DNA from: a virus | Taxonomy: Duplodnaviria; Heunggongvirae; Uroviricota; Caudoviricetes | DNA: 20,816 nt | Strand: one strand, 5' to 3' | Virus record (IMG/VR): IMGVR_UViG_2565956607_000008 | Span: 1 to 20,816 of that record | Shown: positions 14,607 to 20,816 of the stretch, piece by piece | Position numbering within the stretch: position 1 is the first letter of the stretch | Layout of the letters: every line of letters begins with the position of its first letter | Made by a program: the position numbers and the translations under genes | Notes under the pieces: model-generated | The model's input: the letters and a program-made list of their open reading frames with translations, nothing else | Database searches by the model: none | What the model was told of the DNA's origin: nothing

Positions 14607-15068
14607 TTAAAAGCTTTTAAGATATTTGCTTTTGATTTTTTCACTAACACTTTGTAATTCATGCAGTGTTGTGCCAACTTTATCAGCTTCATATTTTGTG
14701 TCATTGGTACATGCTTGGCGCAACTCTGCTATGAAACCTGTATCTTTTGTGCGGCTTGCATCAAGGAGTTGAATGCGTTCACATATAAACTCAACATGCC
14801 GTACGGACGATGTAAATATGAAATAAGATACTCTTTTGTCTTTTTCTTTATTCTCAAGTAGTTCCAGCATTTCACTATAAATGAAATCTAACTTGTAAAA
14901 CAACTCGTCTATCAATCTGTTTATTTCAAGTTTTTTGAGATTGTTTGCATTATTTTTCCGCGCCAAGTAGGCAGTAACTATCCATCCAATGATAGTTAAA
15001 CATATGCCCACAATAGCAATTATGGTAGCTGGTAGTGCCCATAAATTTGGAGTAACGGCTTGTTCCAT
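14607..15068 (-). CDS. Cassette gene C: single-pass membrane protein with helical cytoplasmic domain (153 aa)
   Basis: N-terminal hydrophobic helix (LWALPATIIAIVGICLTIIGWIVTAYLA) then charged helical region; 1-nt TAATG overlap with gene B; GAGGGATG ribosome-binding site; AT-rich. Confidence 0.7.
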   Translation of the reverse strand: MEQAVTPNLWALPATIIAIVGICLTIIGWIVTAYLARKNNANNLKKLEINRLIDELFYKLDFIYSEMLELLENKEKDKRVSYFIFTSSVRHVEFICERIQLLDASRTKDTGFIAELRQACTNDTKYEADKVGTTLHELQSVSEKIKSKYLKSF

Positions 15069-15385
15069 TATTTGGCATCCCTCAGAGCATCATTGATATA
15101 AGTAACAACCTCGGCAACTAATGCCGGATCCTTACTTTTAAGATTTTTCTTTAGGTTGTTAATCTTATCTTTGCTGATTCCCTTTCGCACCAGTCCACCA
15201 AAGGCCTCCTCCAAAAATGAGGATCCATACCCGAAAACCCCGTCAAAGTCAACGCAAATTTCATCATTTTCCAGTATTGCAGGAACTAAATAAAATTCGC
15301 GGAATTTTTCGCCACTATTCTCTCCAAGCGACTCGTAGCGAGGGCCAGGATATCTGGAGAATTCCTTGATATATAAAGTTTTCAT
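15068..15385 (-). CDS. Cassette gene B: STAS-like (DUF4325-like) small protein (105 aa)
   Basis: VDFDGVFGYGSSFLEEAFGGL parallels the anti-sigma-factor-antagonist motif around the phosphorylatable serine; strong AAGGAGAAG ribosome-binding site; ATGA overlap with gene A. Confidence 0.7.
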   Translation of the reverse strand: MKTLYIKEFSRYPGPRYESLGENSGEKFREFYLVPAILENDEICVDFDGVFGYGSSFLEEAFGGLVRKGISKDKINNLKKNLKSKDPALVAEVVTYINDALRDAK

Positions 15386-16482
15386 GCCGCTTCTCCTTCA
15401 GTTGGTAGTGGCACACTCCACTCAACAATTGTACCATTGATGGATTTATGAGCATCCCACATCAATTCGGGCCTTGCTTTCTTCCTTTTAGTATATCTGT
15501 AGTTCCCCTTGTTTGATATGATTCTGAGTTGGGCATGTGTAAAATTATCTATAATTGATTGTAAATCCGTGCCGCCTTTCCCTCTGTAACCAAGTTTTGT
15601 TCTTGTGCGTTTAACCTGTAATGATGCTTTTATATGCTCTGAATCTAATTCAATAGGCTTGCCTATAATTTCAATAAGTTTTGATAAAACTCTTTCTCCT
15701 TGAGTTAATTTCAAAGTTTTGGGAATTCCAACTCCTAAATCGCATATGGATAAAATCAATTTATTATTCATTATTGCTGCAAAACACCACCATTTATTTT
15801 TAATGTTGTTCTTTTGCTTGTCGTATAGATCATCTCTATATGCGTGCTCTACCGAGTTGGACATCGCCTCAATTAGAGGTCTGTATAAATTAGTGTAATC
15901 CGTTCCCATTTTCTCAGTTACTGCTTCTAATAGTTTCCCAGCAATTGTAGAATCAACCAGTTCACCTCTAATAACCTCCCAGCACTTAACAGATGGGTTC
16001 TCTTTCATCTCTCGACCTTTTACCCCAAATGCAGAATATATACCAATACGGTTAAGTACGCTATCAACTACATGATGTTCGCCTTTCTGTGTAGTTTTGA
16101 ATGGAGGGCGAGTTACAGTGTATCTTATATCTGGATAGTTACTTTTTAAACTCTCCAGTTTTGCTAGTAAATATAATCCTGCAGCGGCCGATATGTAAAT
16201 CGTATTTCTGAAGCAAACATATATTTTTTGAGTTTTAAACTGCTCTTGCTTGGCTTTTTTTTCAATATTTTCAATAAAACTTATTACGTTGTCATGGTAA
16301 TTAGAGTTATAGATATCAAGAATAGTAGGTGCAACTATTTTTTCAGAATTTGATTTTCGTATGTTACCATTACGTTTGTATCTTTTGTGTTCGGTTGACT
16401 TTTTGCTTGCGTTTGCACGGAGAAACCTTTTTCTCCTTATTCTTTTTAACACTGAAGTATAGAGCTGTTCTATTTTTTTCAT
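15382..16482 (-). CDS. Cassette gene A: protein with basic N-terminal region and C-terminal GHKL/HATPase-like ATP-binding domain (366 aa)
   Basis: AAGGAG ribosome-binding site 8 nt upstream; N-box-like EAMSNSVEHAY (E205..N209..H213), G1-like CDLGVGI (D248xGxG), G2-like GYRGKGGTDL (about 299..308); AT-rich. Confidence 0.7.
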   Translation of the reverse strand: MKKIEQLYTSVLKRIRRKRFLRANASKKSTEHKRYKRNGNIRKSNSEKIVAPTILDIYNSNYHDNVISFIENIEKKAKQEQFKTQKIYVCFRNTIYISAAAGLYLLAKLESLKSNYPDIRYTVTRPPFKTTQKGEHHVVDSVLNRIGIYSAFGVKGREMKENPSVKCWEVIRGELVDSTIAGKLLEAVTEKMGTDYTNLYRPLIEAMSNSVEHAYRDDLYDKQKNNIKNKWWCFAAIMNNKLILSICDLGVGIPKTLKLTQGERVLSKLIEIIGKPIELDSEHIKASLQVKRTRTKLGYRGKGGTDLQSIIDNFTHAQLRIISNKGNYRYTKRKKARPELMWDAHKSINGTIVEWSVPLPTEGEAA

Positions 16483-17216: not shown

Positions 17217-17528
17217 ATGGCAAAGCATATGCAAGACAAAGAAAGCATGGCCGGAATCACCTGGCTGGCTCTGCTGATCATTGCTGGCTGGGGCGGCCTT
17301 GTCCGATTCCTGATGGATGTGAAGCAGGGCAAAGCGAAATGGAGTTGGATAAATGCTTTTGCGCAGATTGTGGTTTCGGCGTTTACCGGGGTCATTGGTG
17401 GGCTCATCAGCATTGAAGGTGGCCTGAGTATTTACATGATACTGGCCACGGCCGGTATCAGTGGCGCTATGGGTTCCGTAGCGCTCACGTATTTCTGGGA
17501 ACGAATTACCGGAGTGAAAGCACAATGA
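17217..17528 (+). CDS. Holin (103 aa, multi-TM)
   Basis: GGAGGTG ribosome-binding site; hydrophobic helices with charged C-terminus; immediately upstream of and overlapping (ATGA) the endolysin gene. Confidence 0.75.
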   Translation: MAKHMQDKESMAGITWLALLIIAGWGGLVRFLMDVKQGKAKWSWINAFAQIVVSAFTGVIGGLISIEGGLSIYMILATAGISGAMGSVALTYFWERITGVKAQ

Positions 17529-18064
17529 CAGCAGAACAGATTATCGAGGGGATCCTCGGCAAAGAGGGTGGTTATGTCGATCACCCCTCTGATAAAGGCG
17601 GGCCAACCCGCTGGGGCATCACGCAAACCACAGCTCGCGCACATGGCTACACCGGTGATATGCGAAACCTGCCCAGGGAAACAGCAAAGCAAATCCTGCT
17701 GAGCGATTACTGGACCGGCCCCCGGTTCGACCAGGTAGCAGCTCTATCTACGTTACTGGCAGACGAGCTTTGCGACACTGGCGTGAACATGGGGCCCAGC
17801 GTCGCCAGTAAGTTTTTCCAGCGCTGGCTCACTGCCCTGAACATGCGCGGGAAGCTTTATCCAGACCTTATCCCAGATGGCGCGATTGGACCCCGAACCA
17901 TCACCGCTCTGAAGGGGTATCTTTCTGCCCGCGGGAAAGAAGGCGAGCTGGTTTTGCTAAGAGCATTGAATTGCAGTCAGGGCGCCAGATACCTCGAACT
18001 GGCGGAGGGCCGCGAAGCCAACGAGGATTTTCTCTACGGCTGGGTTAAGGAGCGTGTCCTGTGA
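17525..18064 (+). CDS. Endolysin, GH108 family with peptidoglycan-binding domain (179 aa)
   Basis: N-terminal EGGYVDHPSDKGGPTRWGITQ is the hallmark of glycoside hydrolase family 108. Confidence 0.85.
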   Translation: MTAEQIIEGILGKEGGYVDHPSDKGGPTRWGITQTTARAHGYTGDMRNLPRETAKQILLSDYWTGPRFDQVAALSTLLADELCDTGVNMGPSVASKFFQRWLTALNMRGKLYPDLIPDGAIGPRTITALKGYLSARGKEGELVLLRALNCSQGARYLELAEGREANEDFLYGWVKERVL

Positions 18065-18405
18065 AGATGATCATTTTCGCTTTGCTCGTGCTGGTGGCTG
18101 TGCTCGTTCTGTTACTTCTGCGCAAATATACCCGGCTGGAGTTCGTAGGCCATGCCAGCCTGCTGCTGAAAACATGGTCTGTAAAGCTGGGAGCTATCGG
18201 CGCGCTGGTTGGTGTATGGGCGCAGTCGTTCCCGGATGCTGCGCTGCACGCCTGGGCGGTGCTGCCGCCGGATATCAAAAACATCCTGCCGCCAAACATC
18301 GTTGCGTTGATTAGCCCTGCGCTGGTGGTGCTGGCCGTACTATCGCAATACGTACGCCAGCCAGCATTGAAAGAAAAGGCCGACGAACTGAAGGAGCAGC
18401 AATGA
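18061..18405 (+). CDS. Membrane protein in the lysis cassette (114 aa), function unclear
   Basis: Overlaps the endolysin stop (GTGA); N-terminal and internal hydrophobic helices; could be an accessory holin/antiholin-type protein. Confidence 0.5.
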   Translation: MKMIIFALLVLVAVLVLLLLRKYTRLEFVGHASLLLKTWSVKLGAIGALVGVWAQSFPDAALHAWAVLPPDIKNILPPNIVALISPALVVLAVLSQYVRQPALKEKADELKEQQ

Positions 18406-18677
18406 GCTTTGAAATTATCGCGGGACTGGTGGTCGTCATCCTGGGTGCTATTGCTGGCGCGTTCGGCATTGGTCATGCTCGCGGGGCCAGTAAGGCGAAA
18501 GCCAAAGCTGATCAGCAACGTACCGAAGAGAACGCCGCTGCTACTGTCGCCGCGGCAGAACGCCGTGCTGAAGTCACGAAAGGGGCAAGCGATGTACAGG
18601 AAGACGTTAAGCGTATGGGCGATGACGATGTTGATCGCGAGCTGCGCGAAGGATTTACCCGCCCCGGTAGTCGTTGA
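18402..18677 (+). CDS. i-spanin (Rz-like; 91 aa)
   Basis: AAGGAG ribosome-binding site; N-terminal TM helix followed by charged, Ala-rich periplasmic region. Confidence 0.6.
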   Translation: MSFEIIAGLVVVILGAIAGAFGIGHARGASKAKAKADQQRTEENAAATVAAAERRAEVTKGASDVQEDVKRMGDDDVDRELREGFTRPGSR

Positions 18678-18807
18678 TACGGCCTGCAGCTGGGTGAGGA
18701 TCATCTACCTGACCGACCACGATATTGACGTGATGGACCGTCAGACCAAGCGAGACATTCTGGCGCACAACAAAGCAGTAGTAGTCAACTGCCAGAAATT
18801 AAAGTGA
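18592..18807 (+). CDS. o-spanin (Rz1-like lipoprotein; about 71 aa) in the +1 frame, overlapping and extending beyond the i-spanin
   Basis: ATG 18592 preceded by AAAGGGG; signal peptide MYRKTLSVWAMTMLIAS followed by Cys (lipobox IASC); mature part Pro/Val-rich. Confidence 0.55.
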   Translation: MYRKTLSVWAMTMLIASCAKDLPAPVVVDTACSWVRIIYLTDHDIDVMDRQTKRDILAHNKAVVVNCQKLK

Positions 18808-18905
18808 CAATTCTCATACTTTTTTAAGACTAATCTTAATTAAGGGGTTGCCAGTGGATAAAGTGTTGCTGCTGCAATTGGCAGTATCGCTCTGGGGCAA
18901 TACCT

Positions 18906-19115
18906 ATGGGTAATTATTATTATGTTAATAAAAATGCGCAGTCAAATGGTGATCATGAGGTACACGTAAGTTCCTGTGCCAGATTACCCGCAGTTGAAAA
19001 CAGGCTTTTCCTTGGGATATTTGAATCGTGTTCACCCGCTGTGCGCGAAGCCAAGAAAACCTACACGCAATCAAATGGCTGTTATTATTGCTGTTATGCG
19101 TGTCATACGTCATGA
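18906..19115 (+). CDS. Possible small Cys/Tyr-rich protein (69 aa)
   Basis: AT-rich ORF with weak ribosome-binding site, followed by an intrinsic terminator; unusual YYY and CYYCCYAC composition. Low confidence. Confidence 0.25.
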   Translation: MGNYYYVNKNAQSNGDHEVHVSSCARLPAVENRLFLGIFESCSPAVREAKKTYTQSNGCYYCCYACHTS

Positions 19116-19137
19116 CAATTAGTATGAATCTAACCAA

Positions 19138-19160
19138 GGTCGCCAATGGCGGCCTTTTTT
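19138..19160 (+). terminator. Intrinsic terminator
   Basis: GGTCGCC-AAT-GGCGGCC (7-bp stem with one G-U pair) followed by TTTTTT. Confidence 0.5.
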
Positions 19161-19184
19161 ATTGCCAGAAGCAGGAGAAGAATC

Positions 19185-19385
19185 ATGTTAACAGTAAAAG
19201 TAATGTCATCAGATGGTGGCGAAGAAATCCATAGCGGCCTGAGCGTTGGTTTCAACCCCAATCAGCAGAGTATCTCAGTGTCTGGAATGGACCAGAACGT
19301 GTTCCTGAAGCAGGGGGAGGTGGCCTATGTGATGAACGCAAACGGCAAGACCATTTCCCGTTACGAACACAGGACCCAGCAGTAG
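19185..19385 (+). CDS. Hypothetical small protein (about 66 aa)
   Basis: ATG 19185 preceded by AGGAG; the ORF-track start at 19146 lies inside the terminator hairpin, so the shorter start is preferred. Confidence 0.4.
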   Translation: MLTVKVMSSDGGEEIHSGLSVGFNPNQQSISVSGMDQNVFLKQGEVAYVMNANGKTISRYEHRTQQ

Positions 19386-19821
19386 GCATTACAGAAGCTC
19401 CTGAGCTAAGGGGCTTCGATAATGCTAAACCGAAAAATCGGGTTAAAACCTGATAAAAACCCCGTGGAGGAAATCCCAAAGCTACGGGGTGCTGCAGGGG
19501 CAGCCAATGTCGGAGTTTAGTCAGATTGTGAGGCATTTTACTACTTGTTTTGAGTAAAAATAGAAGGTCTGACACTACAGGGAGTGGCTCATCCCTGAGC
19601 TCACGGATAGAACAGTGGACTTTGTCATGGCAGAGCAAAGTCATAAGATAGTTTAGATAACACTCCGGATATGACAAGCGTAGCGGGTGTAAATCAGTTA
19701 ACGGAGCTCAGCGGCTAAGGCATCAAGCATTCACTGAGTATCGTTGATAATGCTATAGTTCACCAGAAAGAGCAGATTGCATGGTGTCAGGAGACACAGC
19801 TCATATTTAGTGGATTTGCCC

Positions 19822-20727
19822 CTATATTTCCAGACACCTGTCATCACTTAACCCATTACTGGCCCGCTGCCGTAGATATTCCCGTGGCGAGCGATAACCC
19901 AGTGCACTATGCGGATGCCATTCGTTATAATGCTCGAACGCCTCTGCAAGGTTCTTTGCTGCCGTTAACCCGTCTGGTTTGGGCATGATACTGATGTAAT
20001 CACGCTTTATCGTTTTCACGAAGCTCTCTGCTATGCCGTTACTCTCCGGACTCCGCACCGCCGTGTTCTTCGGTTCAAGTCCCAACATCCGGGCGAACTG
20101 GCGTGTTTCATTAGCCCGGTAGCATGAACCATTATCCGTCAGCCACTCCACTGGAGATGTCGGAAGCTCGCTGCCGAAGCGGCGTTCCACCGCTCCCAGC
20201 ATGACGTCCTGTACTGTTTCACTGTTGAAGCCGCCCGTAGTGACCGCCCAGTGCAGTGCCTCACGGTCACAGCAGTCCAGCGCGAACGTGACTCGCAGTC
20301 TCTCTCCGTTATCACAGCAGAACTCGAACCCGTCAGAGCACCATCGCTGATTGCTTTCTTTCACGGCCACTCTGCCTGTATGTGCCCGTTTCGATGGCGG
20401 TACAGCAGGTTTTCGCTCAAGCAACAGCGCATTCTGGCGCATGATCCGGTAAACACGTTTGGCATTGATCGCAGGCATACCATCAAGTTCTGCCTGTCTG
20501 CGAAGCAGCGCCCATACCCGACGATAACCATACGTGGGCAGCTCTCCGATAACATGGTGTATACGGAGAAGCACATCCGTATCATCAGTGTGACGACTGC
20601 GGCGGCCATCCATCCAGTCATCGGTTCGTCTGAGAATGACGTGCAACTGCGCACGCGACACCCGGAGACAACGGCTGACTAAGCTTACTCCCCATCCCCG
20701 GGCAATAAGGGCGCGTGCGCTATCCAC
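19822..20727 (-). CDS. insD: IS2 transposase OrfB (InsD; 301 aa)
   Basis: Translation [43 protein letters not shown]... with DDE-type integrase core matches IS2 InsD as I recall it. Confidence 0.95.
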
Positions 20728-20816
20728 TTTTTTGCACGCCCATATTCAACGGCTTCTTTAAGGAGTTCATTTTCCATCGTTTTTTTGCCGAGCAGGCGCT
20801 GGAGTTCTTTAATCTG
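20685..20816 (-). CDS. insC: IS2 OrfA (InsC), 3' portion; N-terminus lies beyond the window
   Basis: Reverse-strand translation ...[43 protein letters not shown] then stop at 20685..20687; overlaps insD in the frameshift region. Confidence 0.85.

Follow-up and report, generated by a model that had tools for sequence, protein, structure and literature searches.

A conserved His/Cys-rich small protein encoded by a probable single-gene moron that follows the lysis genes in a lambdoid, HK97-like prophage

The moron concept of Juhala and Hendrix, with HK97 gene 15 and lambda bor and lom as prophage examples, designates genes that have a deviant GC content, a promoter and a terminator of their own, and expression from the repressed prophage (PMC3594210). 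The small gene analyzed here (ORF1) resembles such morons in being a single extra gene between conserved late genes, missing from close relatives and of deviant GC content, with a predicted terminator and an apparent promoter of its own, and with horizontal spread. Unlike described morons, ORF1 encodes a protein unrelated to any characterized moron product, and both its conservation and its taxonomic spread far exceed those of typical morons. We propose that ORF1 is probably a single-gene moron, i.e., an independent transcription unit that was inserted after the lysis cassette, ahead of the following late gene, in a lambdoid, HK97-like prophage and works as modeled below. The moron architecture is of a known and ordinary kind, and the notable part is the ORF1 protein family. 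ORF1 and its downstream neighbor ORF2 fall in phrog_4298 and phrog_3909, respectively, two PHROGs sequence clusters without assigned function, structure, or literature.

The window is the whole 20,816-nucleotide stretch of viral DNA that was analyzed. Its segment 18700-19810 is 100% identical to the lambdoid, HK97-like prophage of Escherichia coli p10A and p10B, which is integrated at a tRNA-Arg gene. A complete lysis cassette sits 5' of the ORF1 cassette (Table 1). The homology with the p10A prophage stops at 19810, where an IS3-family element (~19811-20816), IS2-like by its InsD sequence, is inserted in the window and replaces or interrupts the small hypothetical genes that come after ORF2 in p10A. 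Between the Q antiterminator gene and the holin gene, an antisense cluster of three genes (14607-16482, minus strand) encodes a 366-aa unknown protein, a 105-aa DUF4325 STAS-like protein, and a 153-aa unknown protein; it has no PADLOC match, Pfam gives DUF4325 only, and its placement is typical of prophage accessory or defense cargo.

Table 1. Features of the ORF1 locus and its surroundings, in window coordinates
Feature	Position	Strand	Remarks
LydA-type holin	17217-17528		
GH108 endolysin	17525-18064		
DUF7940 holin-like protein	18061-18405		
i-spanin	18402-18677		
o-spanin	end at 18807		overlaps i-spanin
ORF1 cassette	18800-19122	+	~320-bp insertion relative to empty-site relatives; with terminator to 19160 (~360 bp)
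Dyad AGTGA-CAATTC-TCATA (GTGA-N6-TCA)	18803-18818	+	CRP-like; first half overlaps the o-spanin stop codon
-10-like hexamer TAAAGT	18859-18864	+	5 nt before the leader hairpin; read by eye
Leader stem-loop TGCTGC-AATTG-GCAGTA	18870-18886	+	predicted to lie at or close to the mRNA 5' end of ORF1
CTCTGGGG block	18890-18897	+	weak Shine-Dalgarno-like, 8-10 nt 5' of the ORF1 ATG
ORF1	18906-19115	+	69-aa His/Cys-rich protein, phrog_4298
Intrinsic terminator	19136-19160	+	terminator scan; 9-bp stem, AAT loop, T-run
Shine-Dalgarno AGGAG of ORF2	19173-19177	+	7 nt 5' of the ATG, inside the invariant block TTTTTATTRCCAGAAGYAGGAGAAGAA
ORF2	19185-19385	+	66 aa, phrog_3909; ATG at 19185
Transposase ORF of IS3-family element	19822-20727	minus	

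Open reading frames as short as ORF1 and ORF2 arise by chance, and their size alone is no proof; conservation settles the question and marks both as real genes. The initial annotation had described an AT-rich 69-aa ORF with YYY near its N terminus and CYYCCYAC at its C terminus, separated by a terminator hairpin from a 66-aa ORF with a good ribosome-binding site, and this description stands. The protein encoded by ORF1 (18906-19115, plus strand; MGNYYYVNKNAQSNGDHEVHVSSCARLPAVENRLFLGIFESCSPAVREAKKTYTQSNGCYYCCYACHTS) reads MGNYYYVNK...NGCYYCCYACHTS, YYY occupying residues 4-6 and CYYCCYAC residues 59-66. GC content is 0.39-0.41 over ORF1, compared to 0.55-0.60 in the lysis genes, and 0.385-0.41 over 18800-19100, compared to 0.54-0.60. 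The terminator scan places the hairpin at 19136-19160 (19138-19160 in that annotation), and the AGGAG of ORF2 precedes an ATG that is the start used in most homologues and in the RefSeq record of E. coli p10A. Both frames are also kept in relatives: a profile search of 50%-identity representatives with ORF1 gave 1,827 clusters at E ≤ 1e-3 (826 at E ≤ 1e-10), and ORF2 has 155 homologous clusters, in Enterobacterales. Each protein matches its PHROG over the full length (E = 3.5e-26 for ORF1 and phrog_4298; E = 4.3e-36 for ORF2 and phrog_3909).

For ORF1, a word-indexed search returned 1,496 homologues, nearly all of 66-72 aa. Among 23 distinct enterobacterial alleles, median pN was 0.136 and median pS 0.849, variable sites at codon positions 1/2/3 numbered 25/19/67, and dN/dS was ~0.055 for the allele pairs with unsaturated dS; this pattern indicates strong purifying selection on the protein. 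The antisense 73-aa ORF (18925-19146) is not kept open in relatives. Thus, the homologues, the dN/dS value, and the codon-position pattern refute the earlier suggestion that the first ORF may be non-coding. The same data bear on the view that the product of ORF1 is a small peptide with toxic or membrane activity, or that the locus is untranslated and acts as RNA, for which one could invoke its short and AT-rich sequence, its weak Shine-Dalgarno, its usual omission from RefSeq, and the conserved RNA hairpin in its leader. However, the codon-position variation and the low dN/dS point to selection on a protein, direct reading of the sequence found no long hydrophobic stretch, the AlphaFold2 (AF2) model is globular, and an Rfam search of 18600-19900 gave chance-level matches only, driven by the terminator. 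This view is, in our opinion, highly improbable, and the toxic peptide proposed in the initial annotation finds no support either, with no recurrent partner gene in 80 genomic and 80 viral loci and no PADLOC match.

The position of ORF1 behaves as a cargo slot. In a pairwise alignment with a prophage whose slot is empty (L187), 18700-18799 and 19123-19259 match at 86-91% identity, and 18800-19122 has no counterpart, which corresponds to an insertion of ~323 nt. We surveyed 78 ORF2-carrying viral loci, in 65 of which the o-spanin could be located, and defined the slot as the interval from the spanin stop to the hairpin preceding ORF2. Its length ranges over these 65 loci from ~14 nt, the empty state seen in 9 of them, to ~2.1 kb; slots holding ORF1 alone measure ~330 nt, and those with unrelated cargo 490 nt to ~2.1 kb, with an IS element in one case. 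Altogether, the variable interval and the empty-site alignment argue for a cargo slot of which ORF1 is one cassette. Other recurrent cargos (L178-L257) include a 61- to 65-aa two-helix membrane protein, minus-strand proteins of 83-119 aa, and a protein of 73 aa, and each cargo is closed by a hairpin and T-run whose sequence type is its own. The ORF1 coding region is flanked by two direct copies of the 8-bp sequence TGACAATT (18805-18812 and 19113-19120), each copy opening with the TGA stop of the preceding gene (o-spanin and ORF1, respectively); this repeat may have been left by the recombination event that brought in the cassette and does not occur in all other cassettes.

Hence, two traits of a moron, presence or absence at the same position in relatives and a base composition unlike that of the flanks, are found for the ORF1 cassette. 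Of the two ORFs that had been put forward as possible morons, ORF1 fits on slot presence/absence, GC content, upstream block, and terminator, and ORF2 does not, as it is a constant backbone gene.

The ~100 bp 5' of ORF1 have a conserved architecture in 25 divergent cassettes, a set which takes in the E. coli 71-aa variant, located in another phage backbone next to the nu1 and A terminase genes. In the alignment of these 25 upstream regions, the AGTGA and TCA halves of the CRP-like dyad are invariant or nearly so, and of 29 distinct upstream regions scanned for the pattern, E. coli 71-aa variants included, 27 contain the full dyad. The distance from the dyad center to the first base of the leader hairpin is 59.5 nt in 21/25 cassettes and 58.5 nt in 4/25, and this spacing is fixed despite the sequence in between not being conserved. 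A TAnnnT hexamer occupies the aligned columns of the -10-like box in nearly all cassettes (TAGATT, TACTAT, TAGTAT, TAATAT, TATGAT, and TAGCAT, by eye). The leader stem-loop has 96.4% of cells paired over 23 distinct sequences, with CG, AU, UA, and UG as closing pairs, and its covariation of 0.348 compares to 0.187 in shuffles, none of 500 of which reached it, and collapses in slid controls; the frequent G-U pairs favor an RNA structure on the plus strand. CTCTGGG is likewise conserved in nearly all ORF1 cassettes. Between the dyad and the -10-like box, the window carries a perfect palindrome, TTAAGA-CTAA-TCTTAA (18824-18839), and other cassettes have different palindromes there, e.g., TAAGAATATTCTTA and GATATATC.

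In class I CRP-dependent promoters, e.g., lac P1, the CRP site is centered at -61.5. If transcription of ORF1 started 1-2 nt into the stem, its dyad would be centered at about -61.5, i.e., in class I geometry. Like these promoters, the ORF1 block combines a dyad 59.5 nt from the hairpin and ~49-54 nt before the -10-like box with a weak -35; unlike them, its dyad has two mismatches to the core consensus. A scan of the window with TGTGA-N6-TCACA, from which the single dyad differs at these 2 positions, found 13 sites with 9.9 expected, which is not significant, and no site in the upstream block passed the threshold of a generic sigma-70 promoter scan, TAAAGT scoring below it. Because the single site matches at chance level and the promoter scan made no call, the weight of the CRP-like site lies in cross-cassette conservation and spacing only, and promoter and CRP dependence are both drawn from conservation. 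On this basis, it seems likely that the block, with its dyad, -10-like hexamer, and leader hairpin at fixed spacing, contains a promoter of its own, which is probably activator-dependent, and CRP, the leading candidate, may be the activator acting at the dyad, to which we give somewhat less than an even chance.

Downstream of ORF1, the terminator hairpin AAGGTCGCC-AAT-GGCGGCCTT (19136-19156) has 9 pairs, 6 of them G-C, followed by a T-run to 19160; its energy contribution is ~-11 kcal/mol, and it lies 20 nt past the ORF1 stop. A hairpin and T-run stand 3' of ORF1 in 37 of 44 distinct viral-locus contexts, including loci without ORF2, and the stem is usually GGTCGCC/GGCGGCC. The same stem being present even where ORF2 is absent, the terminator appears to travel with ORF1. 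A predicted terminator thus belongs to the cassette, but the backbone also has a hairpin at this place in loci lacking ORF1: all 78 ORF2 loci carry a hairpin and T-run directly before the invariant TTTTTATTRCCAGAAGYAGGAGAAGAAGCATG, with at least 5 stem types. Since every ORF2 locus has such a hairpin, of several stem sequences, the hairpin also marks a mosaic junction. Outside Enterobacterales, terminators are not enriched 3' of family members (7/76 versus 19/246 controls).

These junctions raise the alternative that the dyad, the hairpin, and the terminator stem from recombination or mosaic junctions and are not expression signals, and that ORF1 is expressed only from the late operon. Mosaic junctions do fall at the hairpin, the homology with Klebsiella phage ST13-OXA48phi12.2 beginning inside it at 19149; moreover, every slot cargo ends in a hairpin, the 8-bp repeat TGACAATT flanks ORF1, and the promoter scan predicts no strong promoter. 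Junction sequences would nevertheless hardly account for a dyad-hairpin spacing fixed at 58.5-59.5 nt across otherwise divergent sequence, for covariation that tolerates G-U pairs and so indicates an RNA structure, or for the same block accompanying ORF1 in the other backbone, that of E. coli lambdoid prophages beside the nu1 terminase gene. We regard this alternative as improbable and retain the independent transcription unit.

According to the model that we favor, a weak sigma-70 promoter would fire in the lysogen, with TAAAGT as its -10 box and a start near 18870-18872, and its firing would need an activator on the GTGA-N6-TCA dyad centered near -60/-61.5. The ORF1 mRNA would be monocistronic and ~290 nt long and would start at the stem-loop, which may stabilize it; it would be translated from the weak Shine-Dalgarno and end at the terminator, so that ORF2 and the terminase and head genes would not be expressed in the lysogen. 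In the lytic cycle, late transcription coming from upstream of the holin gene and antiterminated by Q would pass the terminator and continue into ORF2 and onward. The antiterminator Q gene is present, and the read-through is postulated from lambdoid biology.

ORF2, annotated as WP_024176412.1 in E. coli p10A, follows a different distribution. Tblastn matched it in 252 phage records, mostly T5-like Demerecviridae, and in phage AKFV33 its homologue lies among tRNAs and small early ORFs. Its AF2 model is a compact all-beta fold of six strands (pLDDT 95.8), and searches of Pfam, NCBIfam, PADLOC, and PDB sequences gave nothing significant. Comparison with the Hsp20 alpha-crystallin domain (PDB 4ylc) aligned 43 residues at a nonsignificant E of 0.46, and DUF3060 matched below threshold in 19/80 members, again not significantly. 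ORF1 and ORF2 could form one two-gene unit, e.g., toxin/antidote or regulator/effector, as they lie side by side on one strand, both in the window and in all Klebsiella prophages with an identical ORF1, and as ORF2 comes after ORF1 in 22/80 viral loci. This is largely refuted by their distribution and has, to our mind, hardly any likelihood: only 16 of the 78 ORF2 viral loci have ORF1 upstream and 62 lack it, as do the 252 phage records, lambdoid prophages of E. coli, inoviruses, and other phyla have ORF1 but no ORF2, and a terminator stands between the two genes. Thus, ORF2 is a conserved phage gene independent of ORF1, their pairing has no detectable functional meaning, and at this locus ORF2 is a constant backbone gene of the late operon beyond the variable slot and not a moron, found also in virulent T5-like phages.

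The ORF1 family is broad. At least 554 loci were confirmed in GTDB species genomes with proteins 62-81% identical to that of the window, and among the matches listed these relatives span more than 12 phyla, part of the loci being metagenome bins in which single placements could be contamination. At this identity, they occur in Alpha- and Gammaproteobacteria (Pseudomonadota), Bacteroidota, Planctomycetota, Acidobacteriota, Myxococcota, Chloroflexota, Verrucomicrobiota (Akkermansia), Actinomycetota (Mycolicibacterium), Saccharibacteria, Latescibacterota, and Calditrichia, and in one DPANN archaeal bin. Distant members of 35-50% identity are found in Streptococcus Javan prophages, Erysipelothrix phage SE-1, Staphylococcus phage 187, and a filamentous Vibrio phage (inovirus); a further copy, in Vibrio cholerae, adjoins an inovirus replication module. 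Accessory genes of mobile elements normally diverge fast. The conservation of ORF1 is unusual for such a gene and points to a tightly constrained interaction or chemistry.

Source databases label all members of the family hypothetical. The PGAP/RefSeq annotation of E. coli p10A lacks ORF1 (window 18906-19115; 20207-20416 in locus L001), and the 71-aa variant, present in 99/5,426 complete E. coli genomes, has no feature under the match in 7 of 8 records among the matches listed (H22-H29). Full-length members have GenBank accessions and no WP_ accessions. RefSeq usually leaves the family unannotated, and the family is systematically under-annotated. Searches of ORF1 against Pfam, NCBIfam, PADLOC, and PDB sequences returned nothing significant, no recurrent family emerged when 150 diverse relatives were scanned with Pfam at E ≤ 1, and in the literature library that was searched, sequence motifs, PHROG identifiers, and accessions led to nothing relevant to the ORF1 family or phrog_3909.

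The family consensus reads MxxYYVNKNAQSNGDHEVHxxGCSxLPxxENRxYLGxFxSCxPAVREAKKxYxQSNGCYYCxxACHTS. In the 114 closest sequences, 21 columns are invariant, i.e., Y6, N8, Q12, N14, G15, D16, H17, E18, V19, H20, and C24 in the first part and P28, N32, G37, C42, A45, V46, G58, C59, C62, and C66 in the second. Of 150 diverse representatives, at least 134 keep H20, C24, C59, and C62; in 11 of the 150, C42 and C66 are both missing, and 10 of those 11 have C63. The ligand pattern suggests one or two zinc sites, and we infer a universal H/C3 metal site and a second, coupled, dispensable pair or site. Hence, what had been noticed as unusual Cys/Tyr clusters is a conserved putative metal-ligand motif of the family, and metal binding by the protein is likely. 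With a globular beta3-alpha domain in its AF2 model (pLDDT 83.9, pTM 0.73), ORF1 is probably a zinc-binding beta3-alpha domain. Its three beta strands and the helix after them would pack around a zinc ion bound by H20, C24, C59, and C62, with C42 and C66, possibly together with H17 and H67, making the second, dispensable site.

Several known domains were compared and set aside. For an HNH or beta-beta-alpha-metal nuclease, Pfam HNH matched 0/150 members, the helix after N32 opens with a single Cys and no His, and Foldseek matches to HNH proteins had E values above 1. The Ada N-terminal zinc domain (Ada_Zn_binding; PDB 1eyf and 1u8b), compared through a 13-sequence Ada alignment built from plasmid matches, gave an hhalign probability of 0.2-0.3% and served as a lead only; Ada has four Cys zinc ligands, including the nucleophilic Cys38, where ORF1 has the invariant His20 (alignment by eye). 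ORF1 shows neither significant profile or fold similarity to that family nor its four Cys ligands. In Hyphomonas beringensis (L003 1737-2171), the ORF1 homologue starts 3 nt past a DUF2188 gene, whose product resembles ORF1 by eye in its beta-beta-beta-alpha order as read from sequence; the hhalign probability for the two was 0.4%. A fusion of ORF1 to GIY-YIG (P0344) was discarded as a functional clue, being a singleton on one 1.9-kb contig and having stand-alone GIY-YIG proteins as its relatives.

The genomic surroundings of the family do not point to a partner. No neighbor recurs in 80 genomic and 80 viral loci; in the 80 diverse genomic loci, neighbors lie on the same strand in 91 cases and on the opposite strand in 59, with median gaps of ~100 bp on both sides. 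Immediate neighbors are enriched for Xre HTH, integrase, AbiEii, ResIII, HSDR_N, M78 peptidase, and HNH proteins. Altogether, the absence of a recurrent neighbor, the mixed strands, the gaps, and the mobile-element and defense-island neighbors describe a solitary mobile accessory gene. In 7-8 loci of Flavobacteriia/Bacteroidota (L004, L073, and others), genes for a large TPR protein and a response regulator precede the homologue on the same strand, which could reflect a regulatory linkage peculiar to this lineage or no more than synteny. The homologue in Streptococcus phage Javan231 lies between the antirepressor and cI genes in the lysogeny direction, like cI and integrase, and the early lytic genes around it run on the opposite strand.

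Such surroundings could suit an anti-defense or superinfection-exclusion (defense) factor, i.e., a metal-binding protein blocking or mimicking a component of immunity or of the infection pathway. Exclusion or defense functions are common among morons (PMC3594210), the chromosomal neighbors AbiEii, ResIII, HSDR_N, M78 peptidase, and integrases are typical of defense or mobile islands, and in Gram-positive prophages the homologue sits in the lysogeny or early region. We nonetheless hold such a role to be rather unlikely: ORF1 has no PADLOC match and, over the 80 genomic and 80 viral loci, no recurrent partner gene, either of which would mark a toxin-antitoxin or known defense system, and 60-80% identity across more than 12 phyla would be unusual for arms-race genes, which normally diverge quickly. 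We favor instead a moron product that would work alone and bind some cellular partner of broad conservation, a nucleic acid or a core protein being the most likely kinds; the unusually high conservation of ORF1 argues for a conserved partner or chemistry, and a nucleic acid is a tentative candidate that we consider less likely than not.

Our most far-reaching proposal is a speculative one, which we do not think likely to hold in full: the ORF1 family may represent a new, widespread class of metal-binding mini-proteins with a new fold and an overlooked lysogenic-conversion function, acting on a universally conserved target and wired to CRP in enterobacterial prophages. If this were true, tailed and filamentous phages and genomic islands would spread the family over most bacterial phyla, its candidate targets would include DNA, RNA polymerase, the ribosome, or a metal or redox pathway, and a universal target would account for why Enterobacteria, Bacteroidota, Actinomycetota, and others share 60-80% identity. 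The family is a concrete case of small-protein under-annotation and, with a soluble protein of 68 aa and predicted metal ligands, a cheap and well-defined experimental target. The conserved block of putative promoter, leader, and terminator, moreover, provides a testable model of how an add-on gene may be expressed in the lysogen while the neighboring late genes are insulated.
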